The translations under genes and the position numbers were made by a program. From contig CAYNMM010000082.1 of assembly GCA_964398355.1 (NCBI GenBank), positions 711 through 64,710 on the forward strand: DNA of 64,000 bases, given 5' to 3'. This DNA comes from an uncultured bacterium. GTDB taxonomy: Bacteria; Hydrothermota; Hydrothermia; B15-G9; WFZT01. Under the pieces are notes generated by a model, which was not told the origin of the DNA, ran no database searches, and saw only the letters and a list, made by a program, of their open reading frames with translations. Position 1 is the stretch's first letter; each line of letters starts with the position of its first letter. This document shows, piece by piece, positions 5,993-61,915 of the stretch.

Positions 5993-6943
5993 ATGGATGC
6001 GATTGAAAGGATTGTAAAAAGGATAAAATCTGAAGAAGGCAGAATTGGCATTATCTCTCACTTTGATCCCGATGGTGACGCGATTGGTAGTGTTCTCGGT
6101 ATGTACAATTTTTTAAAAAAATTTAAAACAAATGTAGAAGTAATTTTGAAGGATGAAGTGCCTTACCTGTTTGAATTCCTACCAGGATCAAAAGAAATTA
6201 AAAGGGAACCGGTAGGATTTTACAATTTGATGCTTTTACTTGATGCAAGTGATATAACAAGAACAGGCTTTGATAAGATTGAATACGGTGATCTTGTGAG
6301 GATAGATCATCATAAAACTGGGACAAGCTATAGTGATTTTGATTACCTTAACGAGAATGCCCCCAGTGCCACGGTTCTTGTCCTTGATATTCTGAAAAAT
6401 TACGATGAATCCGCGATCACTCGTGAGGTCGCTGAGCCCCTTTATACAGGTTTGTTAACGGATACAGGTGGCTTTAAGTATGGTAGAGATTTTACGATAT
6501 CCTTTGAAGCTGCCCTATACCTTGCAGGAAAGGGAATAGATTGTCAGGATATTGCCCAGAAGATTTTCCTCAGGAAGAAATTGCGTGTTTTTAAACTCCT
6601 GTCACTTGCTCTCGATACCCTCACGGTCGTAGATGATAAAATTGCTTATATTGTCCTTCGAAAGGAATTCTTTGAACAGACAGGGACGGATTCGAGTGAT
6701 TCTCAAAGCTTTGTTACTTATCCCCTATCTGTTGATGATGTCGCTGTGGGGATAAAGTTTACTGAAGCTGACGATAACTTCTGGAAAGTCAGTCTCAGAG
6801 GGAAAAACGTAATCGATCTTGCCACAATTGCAGAAGAATTTGGTGGAGGGGGACACAAAAATGCCGCTGGACTCAGGATCTCAGGAGATGAAAAATCAGT
6901 TGTTAATACAGTCGTTTCCAGAATTTTGAAAGAATTTCAATGA
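5993..6943 (+). CDS. nrnA: DHH/DHHA1 phosphoesterase, NrnA-like bifunctional oligoribonuclease/pAp phosphatase
   Basis: N-terminal DHH domain (HFDPDGDAIGS, DHH motif IDHH) and C-terminal DHHA1 with the GGGH motif (EEFGGGGHKNAAG). Confidence 0.8.
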   Translation: MDAIERIVKRIKSEEGRIGIISHFDPDGDAIGSVLGMYNFLKKFKTNVEVILKDEVPYLFEFLPGSKEIKREPVGFYNLMLLLDASDITRTGFDKIEYGDLVRIDHHKTGTSYSDFDYLNENAPSATVLVLDILKNYDESAITREVAEPLYTGLLTDTGGFKYGRDFTISFEAALYLAGKGIDCQDIAQKIFLRKKLRVFKLLSLALDTLTVVDDKIAYIVLRKEFFEQTGTDSSDSQSFVTYPLSVDDVAVGIKFTEADDNFWKVSLRGKNVIDLATIAEEFGGGGHKNAAGLRISGDEKSVVNTVVSRILKEFQ

Positions 6944-18625: not shown

Positions 18626-19518
18626 CAACTTTTGAGAATTGCGTGTCTGAATCCTCTGTCACTCACTATGAGCTCATTTATCCCGGATAATCGTAAAATG
18701 GAAAGGACGATTATCAAACCCGGGATGATCAACTCAGCCCTTTCCGGCTGAAGCCCCGCTATTATTTTTCTGTACTCTATTGGTTGTGAAGCCAGGATTT
18801 TAAGTATGTTTATAATCTCATTGACTTGAACTTTTAGACCATGTACTTTATTTCTATCGTATTCCCTTAGTCCCAATTTAATTGCGGCGAGATTTGTGAC
18901 TGTTCCGCCAATTCCGACTATAACCTCCGCATCTAAAAGAGGAAAGGATTTTGAAAGTATATTCATGGTTAACTTTTCCAACTTTTTTAATTGGTCTTCA
19001 GATACTGGTTTTCTAAAATCAATTTTTGAAGTTTCGAGGAGTGTTAAGGCGCCTAAATTAATACTCTTCAGATACGCCGGATTTCCATTTTCCCCCACGA
19101 TGATCTCTGTACTTTTACCACCTACATCAAAAACTTCAATATTTTGTTTCTGGATTTGCAGACTCGATATTGCGGCTTCAAAAGATAGTTGCGCTTCCTC
19201 TTTACCACTTAAAACTTTAATATTTAATCCGCATTTTTCCTTAACTTTCAAAAGAAAGACGTCCCTATTTTTTGCCATTCTCAGGGCCATTGTACCGACA
19301 GCTATTATTTTTTCGGCACCATGTTCGATGGCGAGTTTATAGAATTTACAAGTTGCATTTACTGTTCTTTCCATGGCTTCTGGCCGGAGATATGAGGATT
19401 CACCAAGTCCTTCACCAAGTTTTGTAACCCTATCGAGATCAAGGATTATCCTCCCCTCATCATCAGATACAGTTAATAGTACAGAATTCGACCCAATATC
19501 AATTACAGCACATTTCAT
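18601..19518 (-). CDS. ppx: Ppx/GppA family phosphatase (exopolyphosphatase / pppGpp phosphohydrolase)
   Basis: N-terminal MKCAVIDIGSNSVLLTV actin-like ATPase-fold motif typical of Ppx/GppA; 305 aa. Confidence 0.8.
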   Translation of the reverse strand: MKCAVIDIGSNSVLLTVSDDEGRIILDLDRVTKLGEGLGESSYLRPEAMERTVNATCKFYKLAIEHGAEKIIAVGTMALRMAKNRDVFLLKVKEKCGLNIKVLSGKEEAQLSFEAAISSLQIQKQNIEVFDVGGKSTEIIVGENGNPAYLKSINLGALTLLETSKIDFRKPVSEDQLKKLEKLTMNILSKSFPLLDAEVIVGIGGTVTNLAAIKLGLREYDRNKVHGLKVQVNEIINILKILASQPIEYRKIIAGLQPERAELIIPGLIIVLSILRLSGINELIVSDRGFRHAILKSCQESSSSK

Positions 19519-42666: not shown

Positions 42667-43041
42667 TTACATAGGGTCCATAGTAAAATTTCTTTCACTT
42701 ATATCCTCTATGCTTTTGACGACGCTTCTTATACCTTTTCTTTCAAATTCTTTCTTCATTAATTTTGCAAATGACCTGGGATTTTCATGAACATGAAGCT
42801 CCACTTCTTTCAATATGGCCTGCTTTTCTACAATTTTGTTTGGTTTTTCCCTGATTACAAGAATGGTTTTTCTCAGGCCCCATCGTTTCCTCAACTTCTC
42901 AATGTCCCAGATATCTCTCACCCCTCCCCTGTCTGCATAGATAATCAGTACACTATCCCAGTAGTTATAGCGTTTCTTCTTTTTAAATTTCGGTAAGTGT
43001 ACAAAAATTTCCATCAGTATAATTATTAAAAAACAATGCAT
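42667..43041 (-). CDS. Small conserved hypothetical protein, paralogue 2 (an alternative start at the MEIF Met, 43014, is possible)
   Basis: Homologous to the 42285-42623 product. It is in tandem and on the same strand as cstA. Confidence 0.5.
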   Translation of the reverse strand: MHCFLIIILMEIFVHLPKFKKKKRYNYWDSVLIIYADRGGVRDIWDIEKLRKRWGLRKTILVIREKPNKIVEKQAILKEVELHVHENPRSFAKLMKKEFERKGIRSVVKSIEDISERNFTMDPM

Positions 43042-43164
43042 TCATAGTCAAGGATTTTTTAGAGGTTGTTCGAAAAATATTTTGCCGGTGATCATTTTCC
43101 CCTTTCACTTAGTAAAAAAACTTCATATTGCCACTCCCGCTTCCAGGAAGATCTACCCACAGCG

Positions 43165-43360
43165 TCACCTCCCACAAAGTGGGAGAGATTACATCCAATT
43201 TCCTCTCCCGCTTGTAAGAAGGGATTGAGGGAAGGGTATTAAGAGGAAAATTTTTGCTTCTCTCTGTAAAATCTGCCATTTTTGACCCCTCCCCAGTTCT
43301 CCCCCCGCAAAGCTTTGCGGGGGAGGACGTTATTTTGTTCATCTCATTCAAGTGCAAAGA
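43165..43360 (+). repeat. Intergenic structured element A: hairpins each followed by a T-rich conserved tail. It is related to the element at 61545-61675.
   Basis: Hairpin ctcccac-aaa-gtgggag (43169-43185). Hairpin TTTCCTCT...AGAGGAAA (43199-43249) followed by ATTTTTGCTTCTCTC. A 20-nt perfect palindrome CCCCGCAAAGCTTTGCGGGG (43303-43322) followed by GAGGACGTTATTTTGTTCATCTCATTCAAGTGCAAAGA. Confidence 0.5.
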
Positions 43361-43625
43361 TATACAAATCTTGAATATTCATACATCATCCTGAAAGACA
43401 TGATTGATGTTAGGTGTGGGAGATGGTTAAAAAATTACATTCTTCCTTTACCCTCTAAATCGATTTTTCCAACAACCCTCAGGAGGACTTTTTAAGATGC
43501 ATTTAAACAGAGAACTCACGTGTCAATTACTGACCTTCCTGCTCAGTATTTCGATAGATTTGTTTATAGTGGAGTTAATCAGGACAAATGTAAATTCAGA
43601 AAGAATTCTCTATAATTCTAAAACT

Positions 43626-44519
43626 ATGAAGTGTAAAATCTGCGGTAGAAAAGCCGTTGTTAAACTTCGTTCTTATAATTTATCTTTATGCGAAGAGCAC
43701 TACGTGGAATTTGTGAAAAGAAGAGTTGAGAAAGCTATTAAAAAGTTCAAAATGTTTAAAAAGGATGATAGAGTACTTGTGGCTGTGTCAGGTGGGAAAG
43801 ATTCTATTGTTCTGTGGCATGTTCTCAACTCACTCGGATATAACACAACAGGATATTTCCTGAATCTTGGTATTGGAGATTTTTCTGAAAAATCTCAGGC
43901 AATCACAGAGGAATTCGCGGGGAAATTTGGTCTTCAGCTAAAAATTGAATATTTGAAGGACGAGCTTGGAGTCGGCATACCCGAAATTGCAAAAGTTTCT
44001 AAAGGGAAACCGTGTTCAACATGTGGAATGATAAAGCGATACATGATTAATAGGGCGGGTCTCAGTTTTGACGTTGTTGCCACAGGGCACAATCTTGATG
44101 ATGAATCATCGGTGCTCTTTGGAAACATACTCCATTGGCAGGTTGAATATCTTGATAGACAGAGTCCGGTATTACCGAAGGATAGAACACTGGCAAGGAA
44201 AGTTAAACCCTTAATTTTGTTAACCAATTTCGAAATAAAATTTTATGCAGATTTATTGGGCCTTCCTTACATTGGAGAAAAATGTCCCTTCTCTTCTGGT
44301 GCAACAACTTTTTTCTACAAGGCTATTCTTGATGAAATCGAGGAAAAGATGCCCGGGGCAAAGATTAGATTCCTTCTTGGTTTCTTTGAAAATAAAAAAG
44401 GTTTTAATACACCCAAAAAAGAACTAAAACCATGTATAAAATGTGGCTATCTTACGACTGCGGGAGTTTGCTCTTTTTGTAGGTTGAAAGAGAGAATATC
44501 TCAGTTCATCTTGCGCTGA
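43626..44519 (+). CDS. ttuA: PP-loop ATP pyrophosphatase of the TtuA/Ncs6/TtcA family (tRNA thiolation enzyme) with N- and C-terminal zinc ribbons
   Basis: N-terminal CKICGRK...CEEH zinc finger, PP-loop SGGKDS (LVAVSGGKDSIVLWH) and C-terminal CIKCGY...CSFC. I placed the start at MKCKICG, not at the ORF-track ATG at 43497. Confidence 0.7.
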   Translation: MKCKICGRKAVVKLRSYNLSLCEEHYVEFVKRRVEKAIKKFKMFKKDDRVLVAVSGGKDSIVLWHVLNSLGYNTTGYFLNLGIGDFSEKSQAITEEFAGKFGLQLKIEYLKDELGVGIPEIAKVSKGKPCSTCGMIKRYMINRAGLSFDVVATGHNLDDESSVLFGNILHWQVEYLDRQSPVLPKDRTLARKVKPLILLTNFEIKFYADLLGLPYIGEKCPFSSGATTFFYKAILDEIEEKMPGAKIRFLLGFFENKKGFNTPKKELKPCIKCGYLTTAGVCSFCRLKERISQFILR

Positions 44520-44935: not shown

Positions 44936-45407
44936 CTCTTATAAAATTTTGGCTGGAAATATTCTAAACTAAAAATTATATAAAATCAACTTTCGGTTGA
45001 AAACTCTAAAAATTAAATTACAAATAAAAGTCGAATCTCTGTGCCGGCTACCATTTAAATAATCTATCTTCTGGCTTCTGGATTTGCCGGCTACTTCTAA
45101 ACTTGATAAATTATAAAGCTGAAAATGAGAATTTCATGAAAAAATTATCAAGTATTTTATGGATTTGAAATCAGATTTGCGTGAATAAAGTCAAGGACTA
45201 TGGTGAAGCAAAATTGTGATGATTGTTTTTAATATGAACTTTCTATGAGATATGATTTTTTGTGGGGGTCGGATGCTTTTTCAATTTAAAAAAACTTTTT
45301 TAATGTAGTGACCACTTCTGGAATTTAATGCCAGGGTTTGATTGATAGTTTACAGAAAAGTGAATAAAATTTTTCCAATAATAAAAATCTCACGATGAGG
45401 GAGGATC

Positions 45408-53235: not shown

Positions 53236-53766
53236 GTGAGAAGAGACCCGGAGGAGCATAGAGTTAATGAAAGAATAAGGGTCCCAGAAGTAAGGGTTAT
53301 AGGACCTGACGGAAAGCAGCTTGGGGTGATGAAGACAAGAGATGCTATTGAACTTGCCTATTCAATGAATCTTGATCTTGTGGAGGTTGCTCCCAATGCA
53401 AAGCCTCCAGTTGCCAAGATCATGGATTATGGGAAGTTCAAATATGAGGAAAAGAAGCGTAAAAAGGAGGCAAAGAAGAAACAGGCCGGTGAAGTAAAGG
53501 AAATTTCCTTCAGACCCTCAATAGACAAACATGACCTGGAGACAAAATTGAAAAAAGTTAGAGAATTCCTTTAAGATGGGCATAAAGTAAAAGTGAAAAT
53601 TTTCTTTAAAGGACGTGAAATTGTCCATCAGGATAAAGGATTTAAGCTTATTAATTCTATTCTGGAGGAACTCTCTGATATGTCAGCTGTGGAAGTTCCT
53701 CCCAAAATGGAAGGCAGATACATCACATCAATGATTAGACCAACAATTAAAAAGAAAGGAGGATGA
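53236..53766 (+). pseudogene. infC: Translation initiation factor IF-3 (GTG start). It is interrupted by an in-frame TAA at 53572-53574, and the frame continues through the complete C-terminal domain.
   Basis: The N-domain ([22 protein letters not shown]...[18 protein letters not shown]) is intact up to REFL-stop. The same frame then continues: [63 protein letters not shown]. The TAA occupies the position of a conserved Glu (GAA). Confidence 0.75.
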
Positions 53767-58189: not shown

Positions 58190-58212
58190 GGGATAGAGTT
58201 GAGAGAGAGTTG

Positions 58213-58250
58213 GGGGGCGGGCGGCCTGCGGCCGCCCGCCCCCTTTCTGA
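58213..58250 (+). terminator. Rho-independent terminator (14-bp GC stem, 3-nt loop, then TTT)
   Basis: GGGGGCGGGCGGCC-tgc-GGCCGCCCGCCCCC followed by TTTCTGA, 24 nt after the hup stop. Confidence 0.8.
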
Positions 58251-58905
58251 TAGTATCTCTTCCATAATTCTCAATAGTCACGAGTCTGGGTAGGATTGTG
58301 TTATCCAGACATAGAGTCTCCTGTAGGGATTCTGATGAAATCCTGGAAGCTCAAATTTCGATTTTTATCCAGGGTTTCTGACTGAATGCATTGTATTAAC
58401 GAGTAGTCGGTGAGTTTAAATCTCGTTCACAATCATAAGAGATGTCAGATATATATTGTCCTTTTGCAGATAAGTCCGAATTCGGCATTCACACATTCCC
58501 TATTGAATAAAATGGGGATCGATATTTGGGAAGAATCACCTATTTAATACGCGATTATATCTCTGCCCTTGATAGTAATCACTATAGGGGATTTTACAAG
58601 GAGCAAAAAACTACTCTTTAATTTGTGTTTCCTAATTACCTCTTTCAATCTTTTCTTGTAGAGGATGTTTTCCCGCAAAATGAAAAGGGAAGAAATTACT
58701 TGTAAAATATTTTTGGAACGCCTTTACTATGGGATACTTTTATCCTGGCACTCAGGGAAAGGAATTGCCAGAAAATTTTTTAATTTTTTAAGCCCGTATA
58801 CAACTTTTATGAAAATATTGGAAGTTTATTGAGGGTAAAGGAGGGAAGCTTTTTAACTGTAAATAGATTGGTGATGAATTATCAATTTCCTCCTGTTGGT
58901 GAAAG

Positions 58906-61128: not shown

Positions 61129-61544
61129 TAAGACCTCACTTCCTAAAGAATAGTTAGAGAATAATACATGAACCCATCACTCAAGACAAGTGGTATATGA
61201 AGGTGTTTGAAAAATTTTTCCATTAATCATCTGTCCCTTTTAATTTTCGGATAAACCTTCTTATGTTTCTATTCTACTTGCAAGAAGATTCACTATAGTC
61301 TCTCCCTCCAATTTCATAAGTGGATTCATTTCATAAGTGGATTAAGGAGCTGACATTACCCATGAAAATTTTAAAAATGATTACAAAAACGGTTATGTAT
61401 TGAGAGGAAGGGGCTACACATAATTTTGTCCTCAGAATGCGAAATTATACAGATTTTATGATCAAAGCAAAGAGAGGCTATCTTCAGGGTTAAGAGTAGT
61501 ATCCATTATTTTCCTCATCTATTTTGCGTGATACTTCATCCTCA

Positions 61545-61675
61545 ATTTCCCCTTCAGCCCTGTGGGAGTGGATAAAGGAAAAGGCGAGAGTTAACCTCTT
61601 TTTATCCTCTCCCGCACGGCAAAGCATTAAGGGAGAGGAAGTTTTTTGTTCATTTCATTCAAAGTGCGAAAATTC
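61545..61675 (+). repeat. Intergenic structured element B: a hairpin with a T-tract and conserved tail, homologous to element A at 43165-43360
   Basis: Upstream GTGGGAG box, then the hairpin CCTCTCCC-gcacggcaaagcattaa-GGGAGAGG (61606-61638), then AAGTTTTTTGTTCATTTCATTCAAAGTGCGAAAA. Compare A: GAGGACGTTATTTTGTTCATCTCATTCAAGTGCAAAGA. Confidence 0.5.
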
Positions 61676-61915
61676 ATTCTAAAAAACATGTCAGGATTGA
61701 AGTGGGCAACAGGAGCCTCCGTCATTTGTCTCTGTCAATATTCTCCTGTCAATTCTCCCCTTTTGCCCTCTCAATTATCTCATCATCCACAGTGCTAAAC
61801 GAGAGATAAAAAGTTACATTCCTCCTTTTCCCAGAAGCATTTTTTGGACTGTCTCGATGGTATATTTGCAAGTACATGATTTTGCTTTTAAACTTCATTA
61901 AGGAGGAAGACGCTT

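Follow-up and report, generated by a model that had tools for sequence, protein, structure and literature searches.

Two related segments in divergent intergenic regions

The stretch of DNA analyzed here (hereafter the window; 64,000 nucleotides (nt) of contig CAYNMM010000082.1 from an uncultured bacterium) contains two divergent intergenic regions in which a strong hairpin followed by a T-rich tail recurs. Region A is flanked by a hypothetical gene of 115-124 amino acids (aa) on the minus strand and by ttuA, and region B by topA, also on the minus strand, and a gene encoding a 4HBT thioesterase. The evidence presented below argues, with a probability that we put at about 80%, that both sites are copies (copy A and copy B) of a non-coding MITE (miniature inverted-repeat transposable element) inserted between back-to-back promoters. 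MITEs are DNA transposons that neither code for protein nor move on their own, and depend on a DDE transposase supplied in trans from another genomic locus.

An earlier note on this DNA had described the hairpins of region A (43165-43360), and all of them were found at those positions when the sequence was read. The tail of copy A (43329-43361) was also confirmed by blastn to match 61640-61673, within an alignment of 43298-43361 to 61610-61673 that showed 78% identity over 65 nt (E 4e-8). The tail pattern occurred twice in the window, both times at these loci, with no occurrence expected from 100 shuffles, while four of the seven CTCCC...GGGAG hairpins of the window were located at the two loci, a fifth lying just inside topA and an unrelated one elsewhere. 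Both regions folded better than their own shuffles, with z-scores of -4.65 (region A) and -2.88 (region B). Region A had further been described as a double unit, for which the second hairpin and its tail could be verified; the proposed first tail (43243-43275), however, is the interior loop of a long hairpin and resembles the second tail only loosely. As judged from the alignments, homology between the two sites is far longer than the hairpin and tail and takes in the two whole intergenic segments.

For comparison, we used three contigs encoding an 85%-identical TtuA in the same gene order as the window (L069, L072 and L073), a relative with 79% TtuA identity (L075; assembly GCA_964571845.1), a contig with a 93%-identical TopA and the same PhoU-PHO4-thioesterase-topA order (L078; assembly GCA_054021575.1) and an 84% relative (L079; assembly GCA_027053075.1). 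In addition, a core motif, CTGTNAAATCWGCCNTTTNTGNCCCCTCC, derived from copy A and the homologous L075 segment, was employed in a metagenome scan and matched two contigs, L076 and L077. The features of copy A and its borders are as follows:

43062-43484, plus strand: putative MITE copy A, 423 nt, containing the reported motif
43052-43061, unstranded: left flanking direct repeat GGATTTTTTA, a candidate target-site duplication, 9/10 match to GGACTTTTTA
43062-43078, plus strand: left terminal inverted repeat GAGGTTGTTCGAAAAAT, with the same terminus in L077, L075 and L079
43062-43134, plus strand: left module, GAAAAATATTTTGCCGGTGATCATTTTCCCCTTTCACTT... (nhmmer E 6.6e-18), homologous to 61199-61268, to 58724-58657 (minus strand) and to L077 1313-1385
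43169-43185, plus strand: intact hairpin unit CTCCCAC-AAA-GTGGGAG, homologous to the tandem 30-36-nt units of L075 and L077
43221-43300, plus strand: long purine/pyrimidine core hairpin of the minimum-free-energy fold, with interior loop ...TTTTTGCTTCTCTCTGTAAAATCTGCC... (nhmmer core model E 6e-37), aligning with L075, L076 and L077
43296-43328, plus strand: G+C-rich terminal hairpin GTTCTCCCCCCGCAAAG/CTTTGCGGGGGAGGAC (-24.0 kcal/mol), kept in L075, L076 and L077 with variable loops
43329-43361, plus strand: T-rich tail GTTATTTTGTTCATCTCATTCAAGTGCAAAGAT, common to copy B
43428-43453, plus strand: right sub-terminal block AAAAAATTACATTCTTCCTTTACCC, 88% identical over 26 nt to 61807-61832 (blastn) and also present in L075 (nhmmer right-module model E 9e-17)
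43463-43480, plus strand: right terminal inverted repeat ATTTTTCCAACAACCCTC, pairing with GAGGTTGTTCGAAAAAT
43485-43494, unstranded: right flanking direct repeat GGACTTTTTA, 9/10 match to GGATTTTTTA

The inverted ends of copy A comprise 15 nt that are 93% complementary, with arms 384 nt apart, or 17-18 nt when one indel is counted, and its left end matches L077 from element position 1. An independent assembly (L001) carries copy A at 99.5% identity. Compared with their counterparts in the relatives, its hairpin units have visibly decayed: the units adjoining the intact one (~43133-43157 and 43203-43220) are degenerate, and in the core 5 of the 32 pairs that three relatives keep are broken, mostly by G-to-A changes. 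In line with this, a tandem repeat finder detected clear hairpin-unit arrays in L075 and L077 and none in the window copies, where the units are too degenerate.

Copy B is longer and less regular, and its features are the following:

61199-61857, plus strand: putative MITE copy B, 659 nt, composite and degenerate, with two to three partial cores
61191-61198, unstranded: left target-site duplication TGGTATAT, 8/8 identical to 61858-61865
61199-61268, plus strand: left module, including the end GAAGGTGTTTGAAAAAT (nhmmer E 1e-13)
61605-61639, plus strand: hairpin CCTCTCCC...GGGAGAGG (-18.9 kcal/mol)
61640-61673, plus strand: T-rich tail AGTTTTTTGTTCATTTCATTCAAAGTGCGAAAAT, matching 43329-43361
61743-61796, plus strand: second core remnant, CTGTCAATTCTCCCCTTTTGCCCTCTC..., 78% identical over 55 nt to the L077 core at 1767-1819
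61807-61832, plus strand: right sub-terminal block, 88% identical to 43428-43453
61858-61865, unstranded: right target-site duplication TGGTATAT, directly followed by the thioesterase -35 box TTGCAA

An alternative long pairing, of 61557-61576 with 61601-61620, is available in copy B. The global alignment of the two copies includes indels that are not multiples of three and would break a reading frame, and the small open reading frames (ORFs) within the elements (50-82 aa) had no Pfam match at E<=1. A remnant of a third copy was also detected, so that the 64 kb hold two full copies and one solo end:

58657-58724, minus strand: solo left module (nhmmer E 1.8e-16), with no hairpin units after it

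This solo module is situated downstream of topA, approximately 380 nt upstream of a 133-aa ORF without a Pfam match. As a separate observation, the minus strand of the right block reads AAAGGAGGAATGTAA, that is, a Shine-Dalgarno-like sequence, an ATG and a TAA, at 43439-43449, at 61818-61828 and at ~8548-8560 of L075. This "start-stop" mini-ORF, AGGAGGAATGTAA, is thus kept in three copies, and its spacing between Shine-Dalgarno-like sequence and ATG looks too short for initiation.

Empty sites and flanking duplications

The orthologous sites of close relatives are empty. In L069, L072 and L073, the gap between the small gene and ttuA measures 27-75 nt vs. 585 nt in the window, and comparison with these contigs leaves an insertion of approximately 505 nt (43054-43557) between two promoter sites that are kept. 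On the left, GGATTTTTTA at 43052-43061 directly adjoins the -35 box of the minus-strand gene (TTGACT, 43051-43046), a box which is also kept in the three relatives. On the right, and outside the element, lies the putative ttuA promoter:

43589-43616, plus strand: ttuA promoter-like site TGTAAA, 16-nt spacer, TATAAT, 9 nt before the ATG at 43626

Its counterpart in the three element-free contigs consists of TGTMAA, a 16-17-nt spacer, TATAAT and 9 nt to the ATG, with no Shine-Dalgarno sequence.

At region B, the thioesterase-topA spacer of L078 (120 nt) could be aligned over its full length to the flanks in the window, with 58/66 and 28/33 positions identical, leaving 61196-61861 over as an insertion. 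This empty site holds the target 8-mer once (TGGTGCAT), and its two -35 boxes are 9 nt apart, 8 of those 9 being duplicated at copy B. An 8/8 flanking repeat like that of copy B was found for only 0.13% of random 659-nt segments, even with a slack of +-3 nt. The corresponding gap in L079 measures 174 nt, and the thioesterase promoter-like site (TTGCAA-17-TAAACT plus AGGAGG) is kept in the element-free relatives. Both copies are lodged between the -35 boxes of back-to-back promoters, and in the window the promoter-like sites of both downstream genes are located to the right of the element.

An additional member, at 18847-19142 of L079 (296 nt), is bounded by a perfect 9-bp duplication (AGGACCCGG, 9/9) and has inverted ends matching at 14 of 16 positions; it shares its termini with the window copies and has no detectable interior similarity to them. 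Judged by these sequence comparisons, both window copies are insertions, and the inverted ends together with the flanking duplications would explain the recurrence by transposition.

Distribution of the element in related genomes

In line with the recurrence proposed in the earlier note, a homologous element with further copies was found in the window, in related metagenome-assembled genomes (MAGs) and in metagenome contigs, as well as in run SRR8542060. The L075 copy, whose right end ...TTATCGAACAGCCTTC shares the terminus of copy A, is situated upstream of fur rather than ttuA. In L076, two copies follow each other downstream of an rpoD-like gene, and L077 has a left module followed by approximately nine tandem 30-36-nt hairpin units of the type CTCCCCTCCCGCTTGCGGGAG and then the core; an inverted solo left module was also observed next to the L077 copy (1210-1266). 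L079 contains three copies in 22 kb, one of which starts immediately after 18847-19142. The contigs L076 and L077 terminate within a copy and L075 shortly past one, the pattern that an assembly-breaking multicopy repeat should produce.

Beyond these relatives, single matches to the tail 19-mer across genome contigs amounted to 67, came from unrelated taxa and were all judged to be due to chance. Viral contigs scanned with the left-module and core patterns gave two chance matches in coding regions and no match, respectively. Named relatives of the window TopA, at 51-58% identity, belonged to Candidatus Hydrothermota, Hydrothermia or WOR-3, on which the lineage assignment is tentatively based.

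Two minor observations were made in the same genomes. Very G+C-rich perfect hairpins with GAA/TTC or UUCG-type loops, such as GGCCCGCGCAC-GAA-GTGCGCGGGCC, recur intergenically and could be terminators or REP-like units:

G+C-rich intergenic hairpins: L079 9895-9935, 6353-6391 and 19300-19335; L076 5290-5340; window 58209-58240; some at gene ends without a T-tract

Moreover, two minus-strand tRNA-like genes (L079 5830-5980) directly abut the left end of a further L079 member at 6030-6443, and another tRNA-like sequence abuts the copy at 18847, which may reflect an insertion preference near tRNA genes or promoters.

Proposed origin of the element

The features by which a MITE can be tested were found here, namely inverted ends, a duplicated target, a short sequence without coding capacity, and copies that are dispersed and differ in presence between genomes. 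In the layout that we propose, imperfect 17-18-nt terminal inverted repeats (GAGGTTGTTCGAAAAAT ... ATTTTTCCAACAACCCTC) would bound a modular interior consisting of the left module, a variable number (n) of CTCCC-loop-GGGAG hairpin units, the core hairpin, the terminal hairpin with its T-rich tail and the right sub-terminal block. Transposition would have duplicated approximately 8-10 bp of target, both full copies would have inserted into the short neutral stretch that separates the -35 boxes, where insertion is tolerated, and the copies would later have decayed by point mutation and by internal duplication or deletion. We infer that the element spread by this mechanism and that the hairpin and tail are carried passively rather than being a selected host regulator.

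The ~9-bp duplication and ends resembling GGAAGGTG.../GGCTTTGTTGAA... suggest an IS5/IS903-group-like element as the source, which we take as a lead and not as a demonstration. An IS903-like IS5-family element in annotated E. coli ends in an inverted repeat of 18 bp, GGCTTTGTTGAATAAATC, and is flanked by a 9-bp duplication, GGTTAACTA, while IS5 itself starts there with GGAAGGTGCGAA, for which the counterpart in copy B is GAAGGTGTTTGAA. By eye, the ends described here (GAAGGTGTTTGAA and GAGGTTGTTCGAA) agree with IS5/IS903-like ends at approximately 11 of 18 positions.

Several points weigh against a MITE. The similarity of the element ends to those of IS5/IS903 is short and could be due to chance, and neither a cognate transposase nor an autonomous element was encountered among the 38 window ORFs scanned, a set that left out the ORFs in 21.7-38.6 kb as well as the ECF-transporter ATPase and CbiQ genes at 45.9-48.0 kb. 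The boundaries are not uniformly clean either: the flanking repeat of copy A has one mismatch and its right repeat is offset by 4-5 nt from the end of the inverted repeat, which makes it less clean than that of copy B; the inverted ends of copy B, in turn, are weak (~10/17), and no clear duplication flanks L079 6030-6443. Only a handful of copies was found, counting those of the window and of relatives. Finally, the interior is 66-79% identical over 200-280 nt across species with ~79% TtuA identity, more than neutral intergenic DNA would keep, and this conservation may point to a role in mobility or to something else.

Alternative explanations

That last point would be accounted for if the interior were functional cargo, that is, a mobile transcriptional insulator or terminator, a structured RNA or a single-stranded-DNA module at divergent promoters, used by the host or by the element itself. 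Stems with GAA and CUUG loops, the long core hairpin and the terminator-like hairpin would make up this conserved, very G+C-rich cargo of thermophilic WOR-3/Hydrothermota-like bacteria, which would explain the identity of 66-79% across species whose ordinary intergenic DNA no longer aligns; all in all, we consider this an outside chance. Similarly unlikely is the proposal, raised in the earlier note, that the elements are paralogous small RNA (sRNA) genes ending at the hairpin and U-tract as an intrinsic terminator. Such genes could be MITE-borne, an explanation that would partly overlap with transposition, and MITE-derived sRNAs have been documented in Coxiella (PMC10969869). The anatomy of an intrinsic terminator is present, as 8 of the 12 nt that begin 0-3 nt after a strong G+C-rich stem are U, and both the better-than-shuffled folding of the two regions and the G+C content of the relatives' cores (59-61% vs. 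40% in the window), as expected of structural RNAs in thermophiles, are consistent with an RNA. Nothing that was found favours dedicated sRNA genes, however. A simple terminator scan called neither hairpin, no transcription unit is known to run into them, no sigma-70-like promoter points into the hairpins in the right orientation in either region, and no outward-facing one was convincing by eye in the right module. L075, L076 and L077 do not keep the U-rich tail, only 1 of the 32 predicted pairs shows a double change (in four core sequences, a comparison of low power) while the changes in copy A break pairs, in every copy the bottom strand is at least the equal of the top strand in folding, and the orthologous sites are empty in close relatives. 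The Rfam search proposed in the earlier note identified no family, either with gathering thresholds over the whole window (0 matches) or with permissive ones over both regions plus L076 and L077, where the only matches, all below threshold, were chance hairpin resemblances to miRNA and snoRNA models of eukaryotes; a scan for tRNA and tmRNA genes was likewise negative. A cis-regulatory role as 5' leaders (attenuators or riboswitches) of ttuA and the thioesterase gene has been largely refuted and retains a negligible probability. In its favour, both copies have the same orientation as the downstream genes and lie at similar distances from the start codons, and alternative pairings are possible in copy B, where GGCGAGAG and GGGAGAGG are both able to pair with CCTCTCCC. 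The common orientation stood up to scrutiny, whereas the distances, given as about 275-290 nt, were 266 nt (A) and 244 nt (B) from tail end to start codon. This similar spacing is a coincidence of unlike parts, with the remainder of the element contributing 124 vs. 185 nt and the flank 142 vs. 58 nt (A vs. B). Both genes have their promoter-like sites, which element-free relatives keep, downstream of the element and ahead of the start codon, and this position excludes a leader or riboswitch; the reported motif is an internal piece of two element copies. In addition, ttuA looks leaderless, the two downstream genes are functionally unrelated and the element is absent upstream of their orthologues, being found in L075 upstream of fur instead.

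Two further explanations do without a transposon moved by a DDE transposase. Shared promoter or operator architecture, such as UP elements belonging to the divergent promoters or sites recognised in both copies by the same regulator, would fit the observation that each copy directly adjoins a minus-strand -35 box, near which the left module is A+T-rich. Against this, the homology spans 420-660 nt, the copies are bounded by duplications at sites that are empty in relatives with intact promoters, and a solo left module is also present downstream of topA, which together make such an architecture extremely unlikely. Clusters of extragenic palindromes of the REP/BIME type, which are spread by a RAYT (a Y1 transposase) acting on single-stranded hairpins, share with the element short G+C-rich extragenic hairpins that are often arrayed, and arrays of this kind with GAA or CTTG loops were seen in L075 and L077, as were single hairpins of the same type between genes of L079. 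Nevertheless, REP/REPIN spread is not characterised by terminal inverted repeats, by long conserved end modules that are not palindromic or by duplications of 8-9 bp, and no RAYT gene was seen in these 64 kb of the source genome; we therefore regard an origin of this type as very unlikely.

Comparison with known mobile elements

With regard to the MITE that we favour, the closest parallels are found in three groups. The MITEs of the IS5 family (IS903 group) are likewise non-coding, a few hundred nt long and intergenic, with inverted ends of ~17-18 nt, duplications of ~9 bp and empty sites. The element described here differs in that its ends are only ~60% alike over 18 nt, its duplication seems variable (8-10 bp), its parent was not found and its interior is a modular hairpin array instead of a deleted transposase gene.

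The BrickBuilt MITE of Porphyromonas gingivalis is built from a leader, repeats in tandem and a tail, and has small inverted-repeat ends (PMC4596501). It resembles the element in its leader module, its internal tandem array of variable copy number, its tail module and its strictly intergenic location (PMC4596501), and its host belongs to an FCB-related part of the tree, as the lineage studied here probably does. The repeats of BrickBuilt, in contrast, are 23 nt long without spacers, vs. hairpins of 30-36 nt plus linkers, followed by a long core hairpin, in our case; there is no sequence similarity between the two, and promoter activity was shown for BrickBuilt.

The pneumococcal BOX (boxA-boxBn-boxC) and SPRITE repeats are likewise small interspersed repeats built of modules, the middle ones varying in number, and are predicted to form strong secondary structures. 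Both carry terminator-like modules (PMC10969869, PMC3049150), and the rho-independent-terminator-like hairpin of SPRITE is reminiscent of the hairpin and T-rich tail; moreover, these elements cluster and insert beside each other, as observed in L076 and L079. Their sequences and hosts are different, and the likeness to BOX leaves inverted ends and duplications aside. Two further candidates were tried and discarded. Elements of the IS200/IS605 type (PATE) had been considered for the TTAC and TCAA motifs near the hairpins and were ruled out by the inverted ends and flanking duplications, and a CRISPR-like array was ruled out as well, the units being 30-36 nt long with semi-conserved linkers of 12-14 nt.

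The family represents a previously undescribed MITE, if our assignment is correct, in an uncultured and probably thermophilic lineage whose mobile elements have barely been characterised. Without its recognition, the motif upstream of ttuA would be mis-annotated as a riboswitch or sRNA candidate. Recognising the family is also useful for MAG curation, given that the family breaks metagenome assemblies, with three contigs ending inside or right beside a copy. The precise insertion between back-to-back -35 boxes is also useful for thinking about the evolution of promoter regions. The biological surprise is small, as MITEs of modular build, rich in hairpins and carrying terminator-like modules, have been described before (BOX, SPRITE, BrickBuilt and Correia).

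Additional observations in the window

The start of ttuA (43589-43628) appears to be leaderless, with TATAAT located 9 nt before the ATG and no Shine-Dalgarno sequence, as in three relatives. The divergent small gene may be leaderless too, since its promoter-like sequence TTGACT-18-AATAAT ends approximately 7 nt before the ATG at 43014.

The gap between fur and thiW, the latter encoding a thiamine-precursor transporter, extends over 472 nt (44936-45407) and measures 150-359 nt in relatives. Neither a thiamine pyrophosphate (TPP) riboswitch nor any other Rfam match was obtained in this gap at E<=1.

Finally, infC (53236-53766, plus strand) contains an in-frame TAA at 53572-53574, where three relatives have GAA (Glu; ...REFL[E]DGHKVKV...), and the encoded initiation factor 3 (IF3) is otherwise essentially identical on either side of the stop. 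Possible explanations for this TAA are a sequencing error, a nonsense mutation of very recent date and read-through.

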